64,000 nucleotides of DNA from Squalus acanthias (Eukaryota), in contig CM059432.1 in NCBI GenBank assembly GCA_030390025.1, positions 16,432,001-16,496,000 of the forward strand, read 5' to 3'. This document shows positions 1 through 59,808 of the stretch, one piece after another. Both the position numbers and the translations under genes were made by a program. Numbering within the stretch: the first letter of the stretch is position 1; each line of letters opens with the position of its first letter. The notes below the pieces were generated by a model. It saw nothing but the letters and a program-made list of their open reading frames with translations, had not been told where the DNA came from and did no database searches.

Positions 1-2275
1 CGATTTCTCACTCGAAATGGAGAGCGAAGAAATTGACTCAGATACTAAGGTCCTGAATTTAAACAAGGGGAATTATGATGCCATTAGACGGGAACTGAGT
101 AGGTCTGATTGGACAACGTTCCTGGGAGGACTGGAGGTAGATAAACAATGGCAAGCATTTAAAGATAGAATGACAAAATTGCAAAAATTGTTTATACCAA
201 TCTGGCATAAAAGGAAATCTAAAAAGGTGACTCAACCGTGGATAACAGGGGAAATTAGAGACAGCATAAAATCCAAAGATAGGGCGTATAAAATAGCCAA
301 AAAAAGCGCCAGAGCGGAAGATTGGGAACAGTTTAAGATAGAACAAAGGAGGACAAAGGGCTTAATCAAGAGGGGCAAAATAGCTTACGAAAGCAAGCTG
401 GCGGAAAATATAAAAACTAACTCCAAAAGCTTTTATAAGTATATCAAGAGGAAAAGACTGGTGAAAACCAAAGTTGGCCCATTGCAGTCAGATACGGGGG
501 AATATATAACGGGAAATAAGGAAATGGCAGACCAACTAAATGCATACTTTGGGTCAGTCTTTACGAAGGAAGACACAAAAAACCTCCCTGGGATATCGGG
601 AAAAATAGGGACATTTGCAAAGGAGGAACTGACGCAAGTCAATATCTCTAAGGATATGGTGTTAAGGAAGCTAAAGGGATTGAAGGCGGACAAATCCCCA
701 GGGCCTGATAACATGCATCCTAGGGTGCTGAAGGAGGTGGCCCTAGAGATAGCGGATGCACTAAGTATGATTTTTCAGAATTCATTAGACTCGGGAACAG
801 TGCCCATGGATTGGAGGGTAGCTAACGTTACCCCACTATTCAAAAAGGGGGGTAGGCAAAAAGCAGGTAATTACAGACCTGTAAGCCTTACATCAGTTGT
901 GGGCAAAATGCTGGAGTCCATCATTAAGGATGAAATAGCGGAGCACTTAGCAAATGGGGACAGGATAGGACAGAGTCAACATGGATTTACAAAGGGTAAA
1001 TCGTGCTTGACTAATCTATTGGAATTTTTTGAGGGAGTAACTGGTAAAATAGATGGGGGAGAGCCAGTAGATGTGGTGTACCTGGACTTCCAAAAGGCCT
1101 TCGATAAGGTCCCACATAAAAGATTAGCAGGGAAAATTGAAGCTCATGGGATAAAGGGGAAAGTATTGACGTGGATAGAGAACTGGCTGTCAGATAGAAA
1201 ACAGAGAGTTGGAATAAACGGCTCATTTTCTGAATGGCAGGCAGTAACAAGTGGGGTACCACAGGGATCTGTCCTGGGTCCCCAGCTGTTCACAATTTAC
1301 ATTAATGACCTGGATCAGGGAGTCGGATGCAGCATTTCCAAATTTGCAGACGACACTAAACTAGGAGGGGGGGTGGGCTCAGAGGAGGAGACCAGGAAGC
1401 TCCAGAGCGATTTGGACAGACTGGGTGATTGGGCGGATAAATGGCAGATGCACTATAATGTGGACAAGTGCGAAGTTATCCACCTTGGGTGCAGGAACGG
1501 GAGGGCAAATTATTATTTAAATGGCAATAAATTGGGAGAGGGGGAAGTACAGAGAGACCTGGGTGTTCTTGTACACCAGTCACTGAAGGCGAGCATGCAG
1601 GTGCAACAGGCGATCAAGAAGGCAAACGGTATGCTGGCCTTCATAGCAAAAGGGTTGGAATACAGGAACAGGGATACCTTGCTGCAGCTGTACAGGGCAC
1701 TGGTGAGACCACACCTCGAGTACTGTGTACAGTTTTGGTCGCCTCATCTGAGGAAAGATGTTCTTGCCATGGAGGGGGTGCAGCGGCGATTCACCAGGCT
1801 GATACCAGGAATGGCGGGATTGACCTATGAGGAGAGACTATGTAGTTTAGGGATGTACACACTGGAGTTTAGAAGATTGAGAGGGGACCTCATAGAAGTG
1901 TATAAAATTCTGACAGGTCTAGACAGACTAGATGCAGAAGGAATGTTTCCCTTGGCGGGTGAGAACAGAACTAGAGGACATAATTTAAGGATAAGGGCTA
2001 AACCATTTAGGACAGAAATGAGGGGGAATTTCTTCACTCAGAGGGTGGTGAACCTGTGGAACTCATTGCCACAGAGGGCAGTGTACGCCAGCTCATTAAA
2101 TATATTTAAGAGGGAATTAGATGTATTTCTACAGGCAAAAGGGGTTAAGGGTTACGGAGAGAAGGCGGGGACGGGATACTGAATTGGAGGATCAGCCATG
2201 ATCTCATTAAATGGCGGAGCAGGCTCGAAGGGCCGGATGGCCTACTCCTGCTCCTATCTTCTATGTATCTATGTA
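1..2275 (+). mobile_element. CR1-clade LINE, 3' ~2.3 kb (5' end outside window)
   Basis: Contains an RT ORF, then the CR1 3'UTR (gatcagccatgatc...ggcggagcaggctcgaagggcc...cctactcctgctcc) and a short tandem tail tctatgtatctatgta. The frame is open to the window edge. Confidence 0.95.
17..2182 (+). CDS. CR1 LINE ORF2 reverse transcriptase (uninterrupted 721-aa C-terminal part)
   Basis: Motifs KSPGPD, NYRPVSLTS, QHGF, YLDFQKAFDKV, GVPQGSVLGP, FADD, LYRALVRPHLEYC and FFTQRVVNLWNSLP; no stops or frameshifts. Confidence 0.93.
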   Translation: MESEEIDSDTKVLNLNKGNYDAIRRELSRSDWTTFLGGLEVDKQWQAFKDRMTKLQKLFIPIWHKRKSKKVTQPWITGEIRDSIKSKDRAYKIAKKSARAEDWEQFKIEQRRTKGLIKRGKIAYESKLAENIKTNSKSFYKYIKRKRLVKTKVGPLQSDTGEYITGNKEMADQLNAYFGSVFTKEDTKNLPGISGKIGTFAKEELTQVNISKDMVLRKLKGLKADKSPGPDNMHPRVLKEVALEIADALSMIFQNSLDSGTVPMDWRVANVTPLFKKGGRQKAGNYRPVSLTSVVGKMLESIIKDEIAEHLANGDRIGQSQHGFTKGKSCLTNLLEFFEGVTGKIDGGEPVDVVYLDFQKAFDKVPHKRLAGKIEAHGIKGKVLTWIENWLSDRKQRVGINGSFSEWQAVTSGVPQGSVLGPQLFTIYINDLDQGVGCSISKFADDTKLGGGVGSEEETRKLQSDLDRLGDWADKWQMHYNVDKCEVIHLGCRNGRANYYLNGNKLGEGEVQRDLGVLVHQSLKASMQVQQAIKKANGMLAFIAKGLEYRNRDTLLQLYRALVRPHLEYCVQFWSPHLRKDVLAMEGVQRRFTRLIPGMAGLTYEERLCSLGMYTLEFRRLRGDLIEVYKILTGLDRLDAEGMFPLAGENRTRGHNLRIRAKPFRTEMRGNFFTQRVVNLWNSLPQRAVYASSLNIFKRELDVFLQAKGVKGYGEKAGTGY

Positions 2276-2276
2276 T

Positions 2277-2436
2277 AATACAGCAAATGAGATAAATGAC
2301 CAATTAATGTCTTTTGATGGTGTTGGTTGACGGGTGAATGTTGGCCAAGATAGCAGGAGAGCTGCTTTTTAGTCTTCAGAATATTGCCATGGGATCTTGT
2401 CCAAAAGATATCACCTGTGACAATGCATCACTCCCC
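2277..2436 (-). mobile_element. DeuSINE-like (SacSINE1/AmnSINE1-type) fragment
   Basis: Reverse-complement similarity to the SINE copy at 13302-13612 (tggtcattatc...ttgctgtt; aagatcccatggca). Confidence 0.6.
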
Positions 2437-2792
2437 AATGTTCCCTCTAATTTTGTTTTGGGTTGCGCTTTAATGGGCTGCGCAGCTCATTCAAAAATCC
2501 GTTCATGCGCGGTTTTTGCATTTCCCAACTTGACCATCACAGGACTTCTACAATCAAATCAGCCTGAGACAGCAGCCTTCCTCCAGCAGATTAATTATAA
2601 TGTAATTTTAAATAAAAACCAGTGTCAAAGGGTTTAGCTCTTTGAGAAATGAGTGTAGATTGTAGCATAGCAGCAACATATTCACAGTCACTCAAAAGGT
2701 GATATTGTGCATTATTAAGTGAGCAAGGCTTTGATGAAATGTTATTGTAGAAATTATATTTAATCAGAAAGTGGGTGGGGGAAATATGTAGT

Positions 2793-2880
2793 CCCCATAC
2801 CGACCGCCCTGGCACTGACCGTCCCCACACCGACCGCCCCGGCACTGACCGTCCCCACACCGACCGTCCCGGCACCGATC
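2793..2880. repeat. GC-rich minisatellite, about 3 x 30 bp (two related 15-bp halves)
   Basis: ccccacaccgaccgccccggcactgaccgt repeated about 3 times; explains the PHTDRPGTDR and GRSVPGRSVW repeats in the ORF track. Confidence 0.9.
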
Positions 2881-3789
2881 GGGAGATGTGGCCCTCCTCC
2901 GTCTCTCTCTGCTGCCAAGTGACTGAGATTTGGGAACTTGCTTCTAAGTGGGGTCTGAACCATTGGTGGGAAGGTGGCGCCAGGGCTGGCAGAGAGAGTC
3001 GGGGGGCAGGTTTACCCAAATCTGCCTGCTGGGGAACTGGTGGCACCCGTTCGATTTTCACTCCGCACTATTTGACTTTCCGCTGAGGGGCGTCTGATTC
3101 GATCGGGATTAGGATAACGCTGGGCAGGTTCAGTTAAAACAAAATTCAAAATACAAAATTCTTACAGGGCTTGACAGGGTAGATGCAGGGAGGATGTTGC
3201 CTACTCTTCCCTATGTTGTTGGTCCCAACATGGACCACAACAACTGAATCCTCCCCGCCCCCCCCCCCCCCCGCGCCAATATCCTTTCAAGCCGGTTAGA
3301 GATGTCCCTCACCCTGGCACCAGGTAGGCACTCCTCCCCCCTTAGGACATTTAATTTAATGCAGACAAATGTAAAGTGCTACATGTAGAAAGAAAATATT
3401 GATGACACGTGCTCAATGATGGTGATGATTTTGAGTTGCCAGCTTTTTTTTGAGCTATGACAGCTTTTCTGAGTTTTGTAGGTTGACAAGTTTGCAACAC
3501 CACAGCAATAAACAGATGGAGTATCTAACTGGTGGCAATCTTAATCATGAATTGGAAGATGATACAATAATAAAAACATTTTCTATTTCTCATTATAAGA
3601 GTTACTCACAACAGTCATCAAAATAAATGTAAACACAAGAAATCTTCAATAAAAACCCTATTCACTTGGCCCCTCTACTGTACAATATTGAGGCCAGTGG
3701 CACTGCAGGGACTGGAGTGGATGCTGGACAATAGTAACAACTTTATTATTTAAGTTTATAAGTTTCCTTTGTTTTTTTTATGGCTTAGT

Positions 3790-4240
3790 TCTTAGAGAGG
3801 GTACAGAGAAGATTTACGAGGATGCTGCCAGGACTGGAGAATTTTAGCTATGAGGAAAGATTGGATGGGCCGGGGTTGTTTTCTTTGGATCAGAGGAGGC
3901 TGAGGGGAGATTTAATTGTGGTGTATAAAATTATGAGGGGCCTAGATAGAGTGGATAGGAAGGATCTATTTCCCTTAGCAGAGAGGTCAATAACCAGGGG
4001 GCATAGATTTAAAGTAATTGGTAGAAGGAATAGAGGGGAGTTGAGGAGAACTTTTTTCACCCAGTGGGTGGTAGAGGTAGAAACCCTCATCACATTTAAA
4101 AAGTACTGGGATATGCACTTGAAGTGCAATAACCCACAAGGCTATGGACCAAGAGCTGGAAAGTGGGATTAGGGTGGATGGCTCTTTGTCAGCTGGCACA
4201 GACACGATGGGCCAAATGGTCTCCTTCTGTGCCGTAAATT
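3790..4240 (+). mobile_element. 5'-truncated CR1 3' fragment
   Basis: Encodes SYEERL...RRLRGDLI.VYKI...TRGH, followed by a CR1-type 3'UTR. Confidence 0.85.
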
Positions 4241-4670
4241 TAAGAACATAAGAACATAAGAAATAGGAGCAGGAGGAGGCCATTCGGCCCTTCAAGCCTG
4301 CTCCACCATTCAATGAGATCATGGCTGATCTGCCTTAACTCCATTCACCGGCCCTATCGCCATATCCCTTGATGTCCTTACTAGTCAGAAATCTATCGAC
4401 TTCTGTTTTGAATATACCCAATGACTGAGCCTCCACAGCCCTCTGGGGTAGAGAATTCCAAAGATTCACCACCCTCTGTGTGAAGAAATTTCTTCTCATC
4501 TCAGTCCTGAATGGCCTACCCTTTATCCTGAGGCTGTGGCCCCTGGTTCTAGACTCCCCAACCAAGGGAAACATTCTCCCAGCATCCACCCTATCAAGCC
4601 CTGTAATAATTTTGTATGCTTCAATGAGATCCCCTCTCATTCTTCTGAATTCAAGACAATACAGGCCTAT
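4241..4670 (-). mobile_element. 5'-truncated CR1 3' fragment, tail-to-tail with the preceding copy
   Basis: Minus-strand ORF LEFRRMRGDLIEAYKI...FFTQRVVNLWNSLP; tail reads aagaacataagaacataagaa on the + strand. Confidence 0.9.
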
Positions 4671-5238: not shown

Positions 5239-5310
5239 ATGGCTTCTACCTCCGAGCTGGCCTGCATCTACAGCGCCCTCATCCTGCACGACGACGAGGT
5301 CACCGTGACT
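5239..5310 (+). CDS. RPLP1: 60S acidic ribosomal protein P1, coding exon 1
   Basis: Kozak context caccATGG; MASTSELACIYSALILHDDEVTVT; donor GTGAGT at 5311. Confidence 0.97.
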
Positions 5311-7328: not shown

Positions 7329-8524
7329 GCCAGTGACTGATACATTGCAGTAGTAATAGAAGTTCAACTTGCCCAACATGTTGCAGTGGTTTCCAACAGT
7401 GCGCACACAATCTTTGTATTGGAGACTTTTCCAATCTCACAAGGGGGAGACCACTGATGGAAAACTAACAGTAACTCGTGGGAGACAGTACTATGGGACA
7501 AACCAAATCGCAGACCTCCTGAAATCTTGTGCATCCCCGGTTGAGAACCCCATACCTAACCCATGTGTCCCCAGCAGCCAATCTCAGGAGCTGGTGACGA
7601 AGATTGATACAACCGCAAATAAATTGTGACTTGAGTTGAATCGTGAGTTGGCAATACTGGGAACAGGAGTGGGCCATTCAGCTCCAGCTTGTTCTGTCAT
7701 TCAATTAGATCATTGCTGATCTGTATCTTAACTCATTTTCCTGCCTTGGCGCCATAAGAGATGTTAACGCTTCCACGTGTACACTGATGCTTCTATCTCA
7801 TCAGCTTTACATCTGGTGTACTCTAACTGACATTAACTCCTGGATGAGGATAGGCTTTTGGCTGAACGCTGATGTGATTGAATCATACTATCTGCCAAAT
7901 TGCATGCTTGTGTTACCCTGGCTGTGATAACCTCCTTGGCGGAGTCTGGTAGCGTGCAACTGTGATCTACTTTCTGGCACTGGGCTATCTATCCATCCCG
8001 AATTCAGTTAATTGCTGAGACTCATGAGCATTCACACATCTGCCCTTTTTGAAATGCTTATGCCCTTTCCAAGCTGAACAGGCTATATCTGCTCCAGTGA
8101 ACTGACCTTTCGCTCATCCCTGTTTTCACAATAATCCACAACATCCGTCTAGTCGATCTGAGCAATTTCCAGCATACATTCCCGAACTGGACCCCAAGTT
8201 TCCTTGATGTTGGATTAGTTGCTTGTTCCCTGTTCTACCGTCTGAGGCTGGGCTATTAGTCACTACACCCTGTCCTCTGAACTGCTTTGCCTCGCTATCT
8301 CCATCCTACCCATCACATTGAACATTCCTTTGGTACCTTGCCCAAATTTCTGCCATTTGTTTGTTCTTTGATGTGTGAACATGCTTTTATGTGAATAGCA
8401 CTGCAAATACATGTTTCATTGAGCCTTTTAAATTGGATTACATTCACAAGTAAATAACCAGATCGAGATTGCACTCTTGATTGAAGTGAACTATATAAAA
8501 GTTATGCAATTTATTGTTTTTCAG

Positions 8525-8599
8525 GAAGACAAACTCAATGCCCTCATCAGGACAGCTGGAGTAACCATTGAGCCTTTCTGGCCCAGTCTCTTTGCTAAG
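8525..8599 (+). CDS. RPLP1: RPLP1 coding exon 2
   Basis: Acceptor ttttttcag; EDKLNALIRTAGVTIEPFWPSLFAK; donor GT at 8600; phase 0/0. Confidence 0.97.
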
Positions 8600-9154
8600 G
8601 TAATATCAACATTAGTAGCTGGTAGTTTATTAAGTTTGATCACTTTGGTTTGTATTGGGTAATTTGGCACAGGGACACCCCTGCCCCCAAAGGGAAAGAA
8701 CCTGCTGTAACATGAGTAATTTTAGAAACTTTCCTCGTGCACAAGATACTGCATCTTTGGTCTCGAGTGGGTGTTGTGGACAGAATATTTGCATTTATAT
8801 ATGGCCTTTCATTATCTCTGGAGTGAGATTTACACCCAAAACCTTCTGACACTGTGCCAAGGCTGACGCCTTAATGAAGGAATGTGGCACACAATGGGTT
8901 TGAGGCCCCAGGAGGAAAGGGTTTGGCTTGCCTCTCATTTGACCTAAATGAGAATGTCTTGCTGCTACTTGCCATCTATGGGCAAGAATGGAGACGTGGG
9001 CAGAGTTAGAACAGGCTGTGGAACTGAACTTACAGGATTTTTGAAAGTTTCTCCCTGTCGATGTGTTGCACCTGTAAGAGATGATGGTTTTGATTTTGAG
9101 TGGAAGAATGTGAAGACTTGCAGAAGTAGACTAATTTGCATATTTCTTTTTCAG

Positions 9155-9260
9155 GCGTTGGCAAATATTGACATTAACAGTCTGATCTGCAACGTTGGTG
9201 CTGGTGGCGGTGGTGGTGCCCCTACTGCTGCAGCTGTTTCCACTGCTGCCCCTGTTGCTG
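9155..9260 (+). CDS. RPLP1: RPLP1 coding exon 3
   Basis: Acceptor tctttttcag; ALANIDINSLICNVGAGGGGGAPTAAAVSTAAPVA plus one base; donor GTGAGT at 9261 (phase 1). Confidence 0.97.
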
Positions 9261-9434
9261 GTGAGTATTTATTTTAAGGAGCTATTTACTTAATTGTAGG
9301 AGTGGCAGGACTAATTCAGATAACTACAGTTTGGAGTTTAAACCATTTGAGAACACCAAAGATCATTCATTGTAATGTGGTGTTTGCCAGGGTGTTTTCC
9401 TCTAACCTTTGATTACTAGATGTTTTAATAAATA

Positions 9435-9606
9435 TAAATGTGAAGTCGCACAACACCAGGTTATAGTCCAACAGCTTTATTTCACCTGATGAAGGAGCAG
9501 CGCTCCGAAAGCTTGTGATTTCAAATAAAGCTGTTGGACTATAACCTGGTGTTGTGCGACTTCTCACATTTGTCCACCCCAGTCCAACACCGGCATCTCC
9601 GCATCA
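9435..9606 (+). mobile_element. Penelope-like-element-derived inverted-repeat insertion in RPLP1 intron 3
   Basis: Perfect 41-bp inverted repeat (9442-9482 / 9523-9563) enclosing a hammerhead motif; flanked by direct repeats TTAATAAATA (9425-9434 and 9607-9616). Confidence 0.8.
9482..9518 (+). ncRNA. Minimal type-I hammerhead ribozyme motif (Penelope type)
   Basis: tcac-CTGATGA-a-GGAGC-agc-GCTCC-GAAA-gc-TT-gtga: core CUGAUGA 9486-9492, 5-bp stem II, GAAA 9507-9510, palindromic AAGCUU stem III, stem I tcac/gtga. Confidence 0.75.
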
Positions 9607-9710
9607 TTAATAAATACATCCAACGTTTGGCGGACGAGAATGATTCAGACTTGTGATCCGTGTTATACTGGTTTGCACCGAAGAACTAAAATCACTTTTC
9701 TGTCCTGCAG

Positions 9711-9790
9711 CTGAAGAGAAAAAGGAAGAGAAGAAACAGGAGGAATCAGAAGAGTCTGACGATGACATGGGCTTTGGCCTCTTTGATTAA
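9711..9790 (+). CDS. RPLP1: RPLP1 coding exon 4 (acidic C-terminus and stop)
   Basis: Acceptor tgtcctgcag; (A)EEKKEEKKQEESEESDDDMGFGLFD*, the canonical P-protein C-terminus. Total CDS 72+75+106+80 = 333 nt = 110 aa plus stop. Confidence 0.97.
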
Positions 9791-9817
9791 GTGTGCCATG
9801 GAACATAATTGTTAACA

Positions 9818-9823
9818 ATTAAA
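9818..9823 (+). terminator. RPLP1: Putative RPLP1 polyadenylation signal ATTAAA
   Basis: ATTAAA about 27 nt after the stop, followed by T/GT-rich sequence; a short 3'UTR is typical of ribosomal-protein mRNAs. Confidence 0.6.
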
Positions 9824-11777
9824 AATATAAAAATTGAATGCTTTTGTTTACTGAGTTGTCATGAATACACTAATTTAAAAGGTCAAAGAGGCTGTGTTCT
9901 TGCTCACAATATTGGGGTAGAAATGAGCATCAGTTGGAAGGTGGTTGCAGTACAAAAATTGTGGGGTGGGTGTCACAGAAGTCAGTACTGTGTACACAGA
10001 CTGGTGAACCCAGCACTAAAATAATACAAAAAATAAAATAACTGAGCAGGAGTGCAGGGATATTTTCCTAAATTGTAACAATACCGCCCCTTAGGAAAAT
10101 TGATTTTTTTTGAGGCTTAGACGTATCATGGTTGTCACCTGTTTCTTCAAATAGCTGCTGTCTATGAACTAATTGTCATCACTCCACCATTGGCAGCTGT
10201 GCCCTAATCTCTGGAATTCTCTCCCTAAATCCCGGTAACCTGTCCATATCTCTGGCTCGCTAATTAATGGCTGTGAAGTACATTAAAGGTGCTATATAAA
10301 TGCCAAGTTGTATACACCTGACATTTTAATACCATCAGACATTTAAAAGGAGATAACTTGTATTTATATAGTGCCTTTAACACCCATGAACACCTACCCC
10401 ACCCCCACACATTTGCCATGAGTGAGACCAATTCATTATTACTGCCTTCGCCTCGCTCTCCATGGGACTGTACATTTACACCAGTATGAAAGAAGGAATG
10501 CACATTTATATAGTGGCTTTCATATCCTCTGGATGTGGGTTGAAGGATTAATGTCCAGTCTGTTGAGAATTCCCCTGTTCTTTACATAGCTGTGTATATC
10601 TGCACAAGCAGAAGGAGGGCATTTAATATCTTATCTGAAAGATAGCACTGTTTGTGCTGGGCAATATACCATCCCTACAGCAGAATACATATGCATAGAG
10701 ATCAAATGTTAAGATTTAAAAAAGTTATTTTCAGGGCAGGTAAGGAAAATTGGGACATATACGAAAGCAGGTAGATGGAAGGCAGTGAGTGAGGCAAGTT
10801 TACCTTGGTTTTCATAGGAGCTACAGAATCACAAGTTAGTGGAGGTTATTGTTCAGAGATGGTACCAAAGAAGGTAATGTGGACAAATGCTTTATATCTG
10901 AGGAGCTGGAGAACTGAGGGCTGAAATAGCAGATGCTGATCTTCAAATGAGAAGTGGCAGATGGTAAATGGAACAGCCCTCTTCAAAAAAAAAAGGGATA
11001 AGCCAGGAATTCTAGGCCTGTTAGTCATAAATAGCAGGAAAATATTCATTTGGCCCTTCGAGCCTGCTCCACCATTCAATAAGATCATGGCTGATCTTCT
11101 ACCTCATCTCCATGGTCCTGAACTATCCCCATATCCCTTGATACCCTCAATATTCAAAAATCTATCTAGCTTCAGTTTACTACAATACAAGATGAAATGA
11201 TAAAACTTAACTTACCTGTTCTGGTATATAAGCAGATGTAGGTAATGACAATATCGTAATGTGCTGATGGTACCAAGTTGGGAGGGGGTGGTGACAATTA
11301 CAATTTTTGTGGAAGATACAGATTCATAGAGCATAGAAGGAGGCCATTTGGCCCATTGAGTGCGCCTGCACTTTCAAAGAGCATCCAGTTAGTCTCACTC
11401 CCTGGTTCCCCAGTTCCCTTTTGAAAGCTACGACGAATCTGTTTCCACCATCCTATCATTGGTTGAACTCTATACACTTGGGGGTTCCTAAGGCCTGGCT
11501 CTGCCAACCTGCACCAAAGCTTTCTGGACCTGGGTAAGTGGGGTTTGCAATCTTTGCCGTATTGATTCCTCAGTAACTGAACTTGGAGACTCTTGAACAT
11601 AATGATGGGCTGCACAGCACCTTTAACAATGTCCCAAGGTGCTTCAAAAAATTGATAGAGCCAAAGGAGGAGTCTGAGGCATTTAACTGGAGGAAATTGC
11701 AGCTCATTCTGGACTGCATACTGGACAAGCAATCTCAATACAGGCAGTGGAGAGGTAGAGCTGGTGTCATCAGTGTA

Positions 11778-15861: not shown

Positions 15862-16030
15862 CATAGGACCCTAATTGGATGCATCATAGAATCATACAGC
15901 ACAGAAGGAGGCCATTCGGCCAATCATGTCTGTGTCGGCTCTTTGAAAGAGCTGTCCAATTAGTCCCACGCCCCTGCTCTTGCCCCAGAGCCCTGTAAGT
16001 TTCTCCTGTAAAGCGCTTTGTACCTGCAAA

Positions 16031-16166
16031 CAATGTTCCTGTTAAGCTGCGTGGCCGCTCACCAGCTTTTCTCATTGAAGAAACAGCGCATGCGTGAAAA
16101 TTTGAACGGACCGCGCAGCCAGTTAAAGGAACCGTGCGCTGAAAATAAAAATGAGAGGGAGCATTG
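16031..16166. mobile_element. hAT-type MITE
   Basis: Termini CAATGTTCC / GGGAGCATTG; imperfect 8-bp flanks cctgcaaa / cctgtaag. Confidence 0.6.
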
Positions 16167-18944
16167 CCTGTAAGTATCACGTGCTATGTTCTCTGTATCA
16201 AACTCTGACCTGAGAAAGTACGTGAAGTTCTTGTATTAAACAAAGTTTTTAAAGAAAACACCCAATTCTACCAGTTATTTTTTGTCCCAGTTTACAGGCT
16301 CCTCTGCAGCATACACCATGAGGGGAGGTTCCACCAACCATTCAGCATTTTACCAAAATACCACTGCGGAGGGAAATAAAAATAAATTCTGTGCACAAAA
16401 AAAAGGAGAACATTGCAATTATGACGCTGTTTCCCTGAACAAATGCAGCTTTCGTGCTTCATTATTATTTTAGCTATTTTGCACCGAAAAATGTCACTCT
16501 TCTGGACTGCAAGCAGCCCATCGCTCTGAGTCGAAGCGTGCACATCATCCACTGAAAAGACTGGGCCAAACCACCATTAGCAGTGGTGGTGGTTTGAAAC
16601 CCGCAAGTGTCCAGCAGGACTTCCCTCTGCGCACAACTTCCTGCATTAGAAATAAAATAGAATACAGGAGATTTCAATAAAAACCGAGAATGCTGGAAAT
16701 ACACAGTAGGGCAAGTCAGCATCTGAATGTTTTGGGTGAGAGAGACAACGTTCTTTTCATTTTAAAACCCTTAAAAATGTTTCCCTATTTTAGGGCACAT
16801 GACTAATTCAAATCATGCTTAGCAATTCAGTAAGATTCTAAAACGAGAATGAAATAGATCTTGGGCACATTAAGAAAACTCATTTTGCATGCTCCACTTT
16901 ATTCCGTCAATTTATAAGAACACAGTAATTTTGTTCTCCCAGAGTTCTAAAGTCCACAGGGGATCAAATAAATCTCATAAGGCCGCTTCCAATGACAACC
17001 TATTAACTTCTTTTCAACACATATATTGCACAATGTTCTGAATGTTTTGCTACATCAGCAACTTTTTTTTTGCATGTAATTGTATACAGAGTCTAACCTT
17101 GGTGACAGCAATCCAATTTTAGTGAATGAAGTATGAGTTGATTCCAAGGTGAAGGTGCATCTTTCCACTCTCGAGGGCTCAACAGTGCGACTGCCCGAGC
17201 CTGGCCAGGTTCTACTCGAACATTCACGATCAGATAATTTTTTTTTTGTATGTTATGCAATAGGAAAGATCTGATTTTTGAACGCTAGAATGGAAATGAA
17301 GTGCTCAAAAGGAGTTCAACATTATAAAGTCACCAATCTTGAACAACCTCGTAGGCATCGATTATTTTCACCATCTGGAATGCACTGCCGGAAAGGGTGG
17401 TGGAAGCAGATTCAATAGTAACTTTCGAAAGGGGGAATTGGATAAATACCTGAAGGGCAAAAAAAAATTTGCAGGGCTATGGAGAAAGGGCAGGGGACTG
17501 GGATTAATTGGACAGTTCTTTCAAAGAACCGGCACAGGCACGATGGGCCGAATGGCTTCCTTTTGTGCTGTATGAATCGCTGAACACCATGTAATTGGAA
17601 CAACAGAGAAACTTGAAAAGTAATTAGCGTTTCAACTGTTTCCAATTCCAGATTGGACATTTAGGATCAAATCTTTGACTTTTCACAAATAATGTACAAT
17701 AATGTTTAAGAAGTTTTAGGAACAGGAAAGGTCAACACCCCAAACAAGCCCATCCCTTTTTTTTTAGAAACCACCCCATCTGTAACGATTCTATGATCTA
17801 TTTATCTTCTCAACTCAAACTTTCCCTCAATCACCCAATCCTACCTCTCTAAAAATGCATCTAATTTTCTTGTAAATCCACAGTTTCTGTTTCAACAACC
17901 TTCGGCTGAGTGAAAAGTTCCACTTCCCTTCTTGCTCATAAATCACCCTTGAACAAAGTGAACAATTGTGTCAATTTCCTTCATAATCTTGAAAATGTTA
18001 ATTGGATTACTTCAAAATTTCTTCTTTTCCAAAGCAAACAAGTCCAACGTAAAAGGCAAAAAATTTGCAGGGCTACGGGGAATAGGCGGGGGGAGTGGAA
18101 CGAGCTGAAGTGCTCTTGTCGAGAGCTGGCACGGGCTCGACAGGCCAAATGGCCTCCTTCTGTGCTGTAACCATTCTATGATTCTACGAACATCCTAAGC
18201 TTCCCTTGCAGCTTAATTCCCGATACCCATAATCATCTTGGTTTCTCACTTCTACATCCTTTAAAGGGCAATATTATCAGTCGTACAATTAGTTGACCCG
18301 AACTGCACTTGGTATTTCAGATGGGGTGTGACCAATACCTTATGCAGCAATAGTAACTTTGAAATTATACTCTTTTCTTCTGCTAATACAACACTACATA
18401 ACATATTGTGTATATGGACTTTCAAAAGGCGTTTGATAAAAAGTTCCACATAATAGGCTAGTTAGCAAAATTGAAGCCCACGGGATAAAAGGGGCAGGAG
18501 CAGCATGGATACAAAATTAGCTAAGGGGTAGAAAACAGAGAGTTGTGGTGACTGGCTGCTTTTTGGACTGGAGGGAGGTATACAGTGGTGTTCCCCAGAG
18601 TTCAGTACTAGGACCACTGCTGTTTTTGATATACATTAATGACATGGACCTGGGTACGGGGCACAGTTTTTGAAATTTGCAGATGACACGAAACTTGGAA
18701 GTGTAGTAAGCAGTGAGGAAGATAGTAATAGACTTCAAGAGGACACAGACAGGCTGGTGGAATGGGTAGACAAATGGCAGATGAAATTCAACGCAGAAAA
18801 GTGTGAGGTGATGCATTTTGGTAGGAAGAATGAGGAGAGGAAATACATGCTAAATGTTACAATTTTAAAGGGGGTGCAAGAACAGAGACACCTGGGGTGC
18901 TTGGCCACAAATCTTTGAAACTGGCAGGATATGTTAACAAATTA

Positions 18945-56267: not shown

Positions 56268-58072
56268 CTATTGGAAAAAAGAGTAAAATAGAACAAAACT
56301 CTTATTGCATTGATTGTTATGATACTGGCAGCCTGGAAATAGTACATCTCTGCAGGCCGCTGCAATATCAGGCTGCTCGGCCAGCCTCTGGGCCCGAAGG
56401 AGGTTATTTCTTGGGGTGGAATTGCAGCGGCCCAGGCTGGTTTTGTGGAGCCTGGAGGAGCACTCCAGTCTAACTTACCTTTCAGGTCCTCTTTGACCCA
56501 GCCGACAGCTGATACTAGCTGGAGAATGCACGGCACACACACAGCACAAAAATGGCATTGAGGTCCTGTTGACATCATAGAGCCCTGAATTAAATATTTT
56601 AATCAGCTGGGTGTCCTCTTCAGGTGGCTGCTTGGGCTGGCTACTCAGAGGACCCCAGCAAAATGGCGAAGGCCACTGCGATGGTGGCAATGGGGCGATA
56701 AGATGTTACACTCCATCTTCAGGTTGCTACCACCCAGTTTCCATCGGTTGGGAGGCCTGAAAACTCAGCCGTATAAAACTAAGTATTCTACAGATGGTCT
56801 CCCATTATTTCCTTATTTCCCCCTCTCACATAACTCGCTGGACCAAAACAACAGAAAATAAAGTTACTTGCACAGCCACTTTACAACCAGCTGTAAAGAA
56901 GTGCAATATAGACCTTGAGATTCCACCATCGTTCTTCCTTCTGTTCCTGCAGGGATGAACCTGATCTCAAGTAGGCTAGAGTCAACATGTGGCTTGAATG
57001 ACAATATTGAAAGGAAAGTTTAAGATTTCTAGGTCATTGGGAGCTGTTCAAAGCTCTCCACTGACAGACTTTGTTAAGATAGAAAGCTTGGCGTGTGGGG
57101 ATCCTACAAATAAGCAGTTGGAGATTGGAGCACAAACTCACCAAGTCGCCTAGTAATCAACATACCCCTTTTAAGGAGTACAGTTACTTTGGAAATGGTT
57201 TTGAACATTCAGAGTTTCTTCCGTTTGATAGTGAATTCATCTTCAATTTTGAACATTTTCTCCAAGATAGAGAAGCACTTGGGGTTTAGTTACAGGAATG
57301 GCCATAAACCAGTATTACTTTACACCCAGTTAACCTTAGAACAGAGGTGGATGTCTAGCCTTATGAAACCTATGGTTTTAACCAACTGAAAGGTGAAAAA
57401 TAGGGCAATGGTGGCAAAAATGTCCATCATAAACATTTCTTTAAAAAAAAACTTATTTAAAATTAAAATCTCAAGAATACATATCATGTATACATTGTAG
57501 ATTTTGATTACAAAGGTGTATATTGAAATGTTCCAGTTTCTTGGCACGACTGTGCTTTCACAGCAATGCAGGTTCAGTGGTTGTGGCAATTTGCATGTTC
57601 TTGGTCCCTGGATTCAGTTGGGCCTGTGAGTGGCAGAAAGAGTCTTTCCCTCCTAGTAATCATGCTGGACAGGGTCATTGTCCTTCAATGTTTGCATGAC
57701 CCAACCCAAAGGTAACGGTGTATAGTTTAAAGGCCAAAGGTTTAGTTTGTAACCTCACTTTCCTTTTATCTGTGCTATTTCTCTCCCAATACATATGCAA
57801 GTTAAAATCTCCCATTATCATCACATTTGTTTTCTTGCTGTACATAAAAACATTCCTCTATTAAGTATAAAGGTCAGGATGACTACAAAATAATCTCATC
57901 AGTGTTACTCCCTTTCCCGTATTCATTCTATCCAGTGTATCTGCTTGCTGATTACACTCATTTAAATCCCTCTTTTCTATCACCATGATGGTACCCTTTC
58001 CTAAAACTGTTTTTACTCCACTTTCTTATATATTTACTTCCCAATTCTGACTGTAACTGAGTGCCAGTAATT

Positions 58073-58985
58073 AGAATCATAGAATAGTACAGCACAGAAA
58101 GAGGCCAATCGACCCATTGAGTCTGTGGCTGCGCCGGCTCTTTTGAAGAGCAATCCAGTTAGTCCCACTCCCCTGCTCTTTCCCCATATCCCTGCAATTT
58201 TATCTCCTTCAAGTATTTATCCAATTCCCTTTTTAAAGCTACTATTGAATCTGTTTCCACCACCCTATCAAGCAGTGCATTCCAAATCCTAACCACTCGT
58301 TGAGTTAAAAAGTTTTTCTTCATGTCACCTGTTTCTTTTGCCAATCACCTTAAATCTGTGCTCTCTGGTTATCGATCCTTCAGCCATTGGAAACAGTTTC
58401 TCTTTATTTACTCTAGCTAAACCTTACATGATTTTAAACACTGCTATCAAATCTCCTCTTAGCCTTCTCTGCTCTAAGGCGAGCAACCCCCAACTTCTCT
58501 AATCTATCCATGTAACTCTCTGATCCCTGGAACCATTCTAGTAAATCTCTTCTGTACCCTCTCCAAAGCGTTCACATCCTTCCGAAAGTGTGGTACCCAG
58601 AATTGGACAAAATACTCCAGCTGGGGCCGAACTAGCATTTTATTTAGGTTGAGCATAACTTCCTGGCTTTTGTACTCAATGCTTCTAAAGCCCAGGATCC
58701 CATAAGCTTTATTAACCTGTCCTGCTACCTTCAAAGATTTGTGCACAAACACCCCCTCTGTTCTTGCACCCCTTTTAAAATTGTACCATTTAGCTTTTAT
58801 TCTTTCTCCTCATTCTTCCTACCAAAATGTATCATCTCTCACTTTTCTGCATTGAATTTCATCTGCCATGTTTCCACCCATTCAATCAGCCTGTCTATGT
58901 CCTCTTGAAGTCTATTACTATCTTCCTTACTGTTCACTACACTTCCAAGTTTCGTGTCATCTGCAAATTTAAAAATTGTGCCATG
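58073..58985 (-). mobile_element. Degenerate CR1 (RT C-terminal part to 3' tail)
   Basis: LVRPQLEYFVQFWVPH and FLTQRVVRIWNAL...GYGERAGEWD on the minus strand. Confidence 0.88.
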
Positions 58986-59808
58986 CACCCCTATTGCTAC
59001 TACATTATACCTTTCCAGATGGATTTGTGTTTGTAATACTCCTGGTATGAAGACAGTTTATATGTCTGACTGCTTTCCGTGTCTCAGTTCTCCCGCATAT
59101 GCTTAACTTCCGTCAAACCTCCCACCTCGACTACGCTAACTTGGTCCTTCCTCCCTCCGATGCTACTGACATAAAATAATTAATTTGCCTCTCCTTCCTC
59201 GTTTAAACTGCTCAATTTACCCTGTCTGCAAGGACATTGGTACCAATTTAGGCTAGTGGAAGCCCATTTCATCTGAACAGTTTTCTCCTGCCTCAGAACT
59301 TGTCCCAATGACTTACAAATCTTAAACTCTCCTTTGCATATTGTCACTCAAGCCACGCGTTTGACATAGCTAATTGTCTCCTTTACTGGCACTGGAAGTA
59401 ATCCTGCTACTTCCTACGTTAATCGCAACATCTGACTGTTTTCTTTCACTTTAGGAATTTTTCTATCTATTACATCAAGTCTCTTACTCTGACACACCAT
59501 TCGGGACTCCTTGCTGCGGCTATAAATCAGGCTGCTTATATATTTTTTTAAATCACAATTACTACTGAAGATTATCTATGCGTTTGCTCTTTGTGTGCTG
59601 CATCCAAAGGCTGAAAGGGGAAAGTATATATTCACGAAACACCATTCACGCCATAGTAATGCTACCACGAGTTTTATTTTGTTTCTCTGGCAGCAGCACA
59701 AATGTAGGATCTGAAACTGGCCATTAAAATTTCAGGCTAAAATCTATCCCCATTTATTGAGCAAAGAAAATTATGAACTTTGTAGTGAAGGTATACTTCA
59801 ATTCTTAC

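Follow-up and report, generated by a model that had tools for sequence, protein, structure and literature searches.

The insertions of Penelope-like elements (PLEs) that carry an endonuclease (EN+) have a described layout, in which an inverted 5'-truncated copy adjoins the pLTR and a tail of 30-40 bp is present at one end only (PMC8557442, Fig. 2), and the target-site duplications (TSDs) given for Adineta elements in PMC3846280 are 8-10 bp long. [quoted passage not shown] The published minimal hammerhead ribozymes (min-HHRs) of metazoan PLEs, as characterized in PMC4209133, show no cleavage as monomers and little as dimers.

In this study, we analyzed a window of 64,000 nt of the Squalus acanthias genome (GCA_030390025.1, contig CM059432.1), in which a 172-nt insert lies within the third intron of RPLP1. 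The insert is very probably the truncated two-armed end of a high-copy PLE, with the hammerhead likely an idle passenger and probably no effect on RPLP1. The host gene is laid out as follows, in window coordinates:

5239..5310, + strand: RPLP1 exon 1, coding part (translation MASTSELACIYSALILHDDEVTVT, then GT)
8525..8599, + strand: RPLP1 exon 2 (open reading frame; spliced joint 8597-9153 in contigs)
9155..9260, + strand: RPLP1 exon 3 (open reading frame; Pfam Ribosomal_60s, E 0.009)
9261..9710, + strand: RPLP1 intron 3, GT..AG, 450 nt long, into which the element inserted (joint 9259-9710, with 450 nt skipped)
9711..9790, + strand: RPLP1 exon 4, coding as far as the stop codon (open reading frame; Pfam Ribosomal_60s, E 1.3e-6)

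The four coding exons make up an RPLP1-type open reading frame (ORF) that stays open across exons 2-4, and the first-pass annotation, which had named RPLP1 intron 3 as the host, is supported both by the Ribosomal_60s matches in exons 3 and 4 and by the GT..AG joint, present in contigs of two of the four sequencing runs. The joints from run X2, which we guess to be DNA, fix the intron boundaries without showing splicing of the insert-bearing allele, and their source may be a processed pseudogene. Spliced RPLP1 joints occur in both DNA-guess runs, X1 and X2 (window 8525-9790), which suggests that the genome contains processed pseudogene copies. Intron 3 also holds three AATAAA hexamers (at 9427, 9524 and 9609), two of which came with the insertion, one in the stem and one in the second duplication copy; the likely polyadenylation signal of RPLP1 itself is an ATTAAA at 9818.

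The insert and its flanks consist of the following parts:

9425..9434, + strand: left copy of the 10-bp target-site duplication, TTAATAAATA (the empty site in a contig of run X13, see below, has one related copy)
9436..9482, - strand: inverted 5'-truncated element end, +41 to +89, short end, no tail, 2-nt deletion (blastn, end classification)
9481..9606, + strand: direct copy of the element 3' end, pLTR part and tail (sibling comparison)
9572..9606, + strand: tail of about 35 nt, separating the family's short 3' end from its long one (3' ends form two clusters)
9607..9616, + strand: right copy of the target-site duplication, TTAATAAATA

Alignment of the arms confirmed the perfect 41-bp hairpin with a 40-nt loop that had been described at first: 9442-9482 and 9523-9563 are exact reverse complements enclosing 9483-9522, and the predicted fold of -90.4 kcal/mol (z -14 against 200 shuffles) is far beyond chance. 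The further statement that the arms carry no mismatch holds for these inner 41 bp, but not for the full inverted arm (9436-9482), which aligns with the direct arm at 95.9% over 49 columns and has a 2-nt deletion. Positions 9481-9482 are common to the inverted arm and the direct copy, a 2-nt microhomology, and the repeats at 9425-9434 and 9607-9616, initially called TSD-like, proved to be such a duplication, with an empty orthologous site. Among the eight inverted pairs of at least 30 nt in the window, the insert hairpin is the only near-perfect one with a short loop. Three inverted pairs elsewhere (1848-4669, 15884-18169 and 56984-59361) are diverged older repeats, 73-88% complementary, 1.4-2.3 kb apart and unrelated to the insert.

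Judged by the longer copies of the family, 9481-9606 is the end of an endonuclease-bearing PLE, probably of the Neptune kind. In the longer copies L010, L011, L014 and L018 the same end follows an ORF with motifs (YIDD, CHGNLCKTC and VVYLIRC...WYIGE in L010, L011 and L018) that we take to be those of the reverse transcriptase (RT), the Cys linker and a GIY-YIG-type endonuclease, in agreement with the Penelope origin proposed in the first-pass annotation. This layout of RT, Cys-linker and endonuclease motifs is given for PLEs in PMC8557442, where a CX2-5CxxC linker between RT and endonuclease is described as a Neptune feature, common to Nematis; here C-HGNL-C-KT-C precedes the endonuclease motifs and fits that pattern. 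When the L010 fragment was searched against proteins, 223 matches had E<=1e-20; the named ones at the top are from sharks, and many of these relatives carry RVT_1 (PF00078) and several more distant ones GIY-YIG (PF01541), while the fragment itself scored E 0.085 with RVT_1, below threshold. A candidate full-length element, L060 (two copies 4.1 kb apart), was rejected, with no RT ORF between its copies. Several PLE subfamilies with a common 3' end are seen among L098-L165, differing upstream, in loop 2 (3-9 nt) and in N7.

The family is abundant. The 3.7-Gb genome contains 958 exact copies of a 57-mer of the direct part (none of the control pattern) and 15,482 matches to a 35-nt hammerhead pattern; a 30-nt 3' pattern from the stem stretch has at least 95,196 matches, and we estimate roughly 70,000 insertions. 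By density alone, about 0.09 insertions would be expected in a 4.55-kb gene, so that finding one in the intron of some ribosomal-protein gene requires no particular explanation.

The architecture of the insert is shared by its siblings, which we examined in two samples. Sample 1 comprises 90 copies on the first two contigs, obtained from the first 100 listed exact 57-mer matches after merging of two-armed copies, and is biased to the window variant by that selection. The inverted arm lies 5' of the direct arm in 55 of the 90, of which 50 pair a short end with a tail end, none two tails or two short ends, and five are unclassified; duplications of 10-16 bp, mostly 12-14, flank 44 of the 55. Sample 2 (75 records) was drawn from the first 100 listed 3'-pattern matches, independently of the hammerhead. 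Thirty of these have an inverted partner in the fetched flank, 29 pairing short with tail and one short with short. Six more minus/plus pairs, 1.6-2.9 kb apart and each short plus tail by their flags, were counted as singles, the partner lying beyond the 1,500 nt examined. Short plus tail pairing thus holds in 79 of 85 cases across both samples, and the 29 of 30 mixed pairs depart strongly from an independent choice of ends, under which at most half would be mixed (binomial p 6e-8). The 3' ends of the family form two clusters, at about +84 to +91 and +122 to +124, and the window copy follows the same rule, its inverted arm reaching +89 and its direct arm +124, with a 2-nt overlap at the junction. 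The insert has an inverted truncated copy, a tail at one end and a TSD with an empty site, as EN+ PLE insertions do. Although the qualitative pattern is in print, we found no quantitative count of short/tail pairing in the literature searched.

We propose that the element endonuclease would have made a staggered cut in the AT-rich intron DNA, and that each cut strand would have primed reverse transcription at one of two internal RNA start sites (the short end and the tail end), a two-ended step that draws on genome patterns and on an in vitro study of another clade. Both cDNAs would then have stopped early (at +41 and about -1) and joined at the 2-nt microhomology. The hairpin is the overlap of two element copies, with the hammerhead in its loop because the inverted copy stopped before reaching it; the earlier idea of the hairpin as a device to present or sequester the ribozyme gives way to that of a by-product of how these elements insert. 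Ribozyme-cut RNA as the template was rejected for the sampled family copies: among the first 100 listed matches, no arm starts at the cut site (+33) and two start at +35, 5' ends upstream of about +20 being blurred by subfamily differences. Many truncated arms (L001-L090, L098-L165) stop near the 5' edge of the hammerhead, at about -7 to +5, and several head-to-head copies in the same sets share a junction with 4 nt between two cores; these endpoints suggest that copying preferentially stops, or switches template, at stem I and not at the ribozyme cut site.

Presence or absence in orthologous RPLP1 introns, a check put forward in the first-pass annotation, bears on the age of the insertion. 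A 2,866-nt contig from organism C (run X13) covers exon 3 and the left flank as far as 9431, continues through a short flank repeat, and then matches 9614-9627 over 14 letters (30 loose letters shown); it represents an empty site in another organism, so that the insert is absent from organism C. In organism A, junction contigs from runs X2 and X6 enter the insert by 26 and 8 letters, respectively, against a bridging mark of 31 letters, and suggest that the insert is present in other organism A samples as well, on haplotypes with different flanks. The contigs of runs X1 and X11 stop short of the insertion site, as do the loose letters shown for run X15 (organism D). The window copy departs from the sibling majority at one of 67 positions, compared with 1.33 on average among siblings (30 of the 32 tail-bearing copies were used), and its N7 is U, while C is found in 93 of the first 100 matches listed. 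The description of the copy as young is consistent with the empty orthologous site and the low divergence, but the perfect 41-bp arms cited as a sign of youth are ordinary in the family: over the same 41 nt, sample 1 has them in 29 of its 54 pairs and sample 2 in 20 of its 33 (where a few pairs were possibly counted twice). The youth of the insert is that of its whole subfamily. Run X6 shows a 14-nt tandem repeat directly left of the target site (window 9419-9434) that is absent from the window, the organism C contig has a similar repeat there, and the window haplotype has probably lost one 14-nt unit.

The loop of the hairpin contains the following motif:

9482..9518, + strand: minimal type I hammerhead motif, predicted cut after U9514
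9482-9485 and 9515-9518, + strand: hammerhead stem I, UCAC/GUGA
9486-9492 and 9507-9510, + strand: hammerhead core, CUGAUGA and GAAA (sequence)
9493, + strand: bulged A (sequence)
9494-9498 and 9502-9506, + strand: hammerhead stem II (sequence, fold)
9510-9513, + strand: palindrome AGCU (sequence)
9514, + strand: U17 (sequence)

Its identity as a hammerhead, as first annotated, is upheld by these elements and by the core kept in 76 siblings. The Rfam search that had been advised was run, and no hammerhead family matched at E<=10 in 8000-11000 or in 9475-9530, a miss that is expected because the motif is without a real stem III; the scans gave only sub-threshold miRNA, snoRNA and intron matches. 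A full core is present in 76 of 100 sibling arms, and the bulged A, the G10.1-C11.1 pair and AGCU are kept in all 76, which are related copies, so that such counts do not stand for independent events. In these cores, loop 2 is 3-9 nt long, N7 takes all four bases, stem II differs mainly by G-U wobbles, and the third pair of stem I shows a compensatory switch, being C-G in 48 cores and U-A in 23. By these patterns, the hammerhead is under selection in the family, and hence the motif works somewhere in the element cycle, which counts against the idle-passenger reading. N17 is U in 15,482 pattern matches, versus 519 with other bases (about 97% of 16,001). U17 extends the palindrome to AAGCUU (window 9509-9514), and its pairing with A14 in a dimer could hold the core inactive.

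Folding predictions for the window copy give stems I and II a probability of about 0.97-0.99, whether alone, in the hairpin or in the whole intron, with a stray pair predicted in the core. The unzipped motif, the only unusual feature of this copy, is a consequence of where the inversion broke. Among the short fold-back siblings of sample 2 (24 distinct; 27 rows, three duplicates removed), stem II is intact in two and both stems in one, and in the remainder the motif is zipped against an antisense copy or cut short. We estimate that loci with an unzipped hammerhead number on the order of a thousand or more, besides many non-inverted copies.

Going by the predicted structures, hammerhead activity in intron 3 is unlikely. 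Stem III is predicted as one base pair closing two bases, too short to do without a partner molecule. Two monomers (-21.6 kcal/mol) and an inactive dimer with swapped stem II strands (-28.9) are both calculated as more stable at 37 C than the double hammerhead (-19.1), by nearest-neighbor energies in which Mg2+, tertiary contacts and proteins do not figure. With the full insert, too, the inactive swapped form is the best predicted dimer (-188.1 versus -180.8 kcal/mol for two monomers). In the pre-mRNA, the hairpin and stems I and II would fold, and stem III would need a second molecule and probably the element protein as well; given that dependence, the cut after U9514, at a distance of 254 nt from the 5' splice site and 196 nt from the 3' one, would be rare, and intron 3 would be spliced and degraded normally. 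The cleavage triplet of the window copy is CUU, and NUU triplets are slow for hammerhead cleavage. The fastest triplets reported in PMC3138052 and PMC2238771 are GUC and GUA. In the studies summarized in PMC2995048 (citing Dye 2006 and Fong 2009), cleavage by a hammerhead left introns splicing about as efficiently as uncut ones, and splicing was blocked only by a fast HDV ribozyme; by analogy, even cleavage of intron 3 might not matter for splicing. The suggestion that intermolecular dimers could cleave the intron and affect its splicing is thus not supported, the catalytic dimer being predicted to be disfavored and the literature describing weak dimers and unaffected splicing.

An insert of the same origin could be cut at a low level with the element protein or a second hammerhead transcript, with no clear effect on RPLP1. 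We consider this unlikely, even with an intact core, stems I and II predicted as formed and extended by the hairpin, and thousands of same-sequence partners genome-wide; the exon-3 contigs are, besides, very deep in the RNA-guess runs X10 and X11, depth being a poor measure. The PAc hammerhead was cut only when its protein was added, and its mutants inserted normally, but RNA-seq gave no reads with ends at the PAc cut site (PMC11167929). In a double hammerhead, moreover, stem III is intermolecular (Forster model, PMC4209133, Fig. 1), as presumably is stem I, which here continues into the 41-bp intramolecular helix; the best predicted dimer is inactive, and CUU is not among the fastest-reported triplets. 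It is very unlikely that the hairpin, and not the ribozyme, is what matters, as a substrate for ADAR editing or as a source of Drosha/Dicer small RNAs that could target family transcripts in their tens of thousands. A near-perfect 47-bp stem does lie in a short ribosomal-protein intron, with a stem sequence common to at least 95,196 genomic sites, but the same RNA is available from thousands of other fold-backs, which leaves the window copy with nothing special, and the Rfam miRNA matches are sub-threshold (MIR396, 26 bits versus a gathering score of 80), as any long hairpin gives.

It would also be possible to read the motif as a pre-folded half of a double hammerhead that is cut only in the presence of Penelope protein or element RNA, the intron thereby sensing the retroelement and lowering or re-timing RPLP1. 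We regard such a sensor as highly improbable; its pre-folded state, with stems I and II locked and AGCU exposed, would itself stem from the accident of the breakpoint. If the ribozyme did cut in vivo on element activity, ribosomal-protein expression would be tied to a retroelement in a new way; nothing here points there. Barely credible, finally, is a hairpin unit that acts as a non-autonomous, MITE- or retrozyme-like element, or an insert that lets the RT copy upstream RPLP1 pre-mRNA to new sites. Both RT start sites are held in the sense direction, and solo pLTRs mobilized a host gene in trans in Adineta (PMC3846280). However, the junction 30-mer of the insert has one exact match in the 3.7-Gb genome, this locus, so that the unit has not been copied onward, and on that ground the self-copying hairpin was rejected; the siblings, too, have many different breakpoints, and the unit is without the tandem array found in non-LTR retrozymes.

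As the truncated end of a PLE with a probably idle hammerhead, this single locus matters little, being one of an estimated 70,000 or so insertions of an already known type. Its value lies in what it records of the mechanism: the pairing of short and tail ends in 79 of 85 cases fits two internal RT starts and two-strand priming, as seen in vitro for another PLE. The hammerhead resembles the metazoan PLE min-HHRs, as they are depicted in PMC4209133, in its CUGANGA and GAAA cores, the bulged base between 9 and 10.1, the G10.1-C11.1 pair, the short stem I, the palindromic 15.2-16.2, its location in the pLTR, and its occurrence mostly as solitary copies from truncated elements. It differs in a stem II of 5 bp, compared with 7-8 bp in the Schistosoma families, in the U at N17 of most family copies, and in a stem I prolonged by the accidental 41-bp helix. 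The family may already be listed in the hammerhead alignments of PMC4209133 or in the chondrichthyan genome of a 2026 preprint.

[quoted passage not shown] The animal non-LTR retrozymes of bioRxiv 10.64898/2026.07.22.740005 are alike in a pLTR-derived type I hammerhead and in having no coding capacity; as outlined there, they form head-to-tail tandem units with at least two hammerheads, whereas the single hammerhead, inverted layout and single copy in the window rule out a retrozyme here. Close, too, are the EN+ PLE insertion units (PMC8557442; Pen2a_Av, PMC3846280), which, in the descriptions given there, have the same head-to-head inversion, tail on one arm, duplication of about 10 bp and overlap at the inverted junction, and from which the window copy differs in that no ORF is left and the inverted arm falls short of the hammerhead. 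The feature is real, and its origin is ordinary and of a published architecture.
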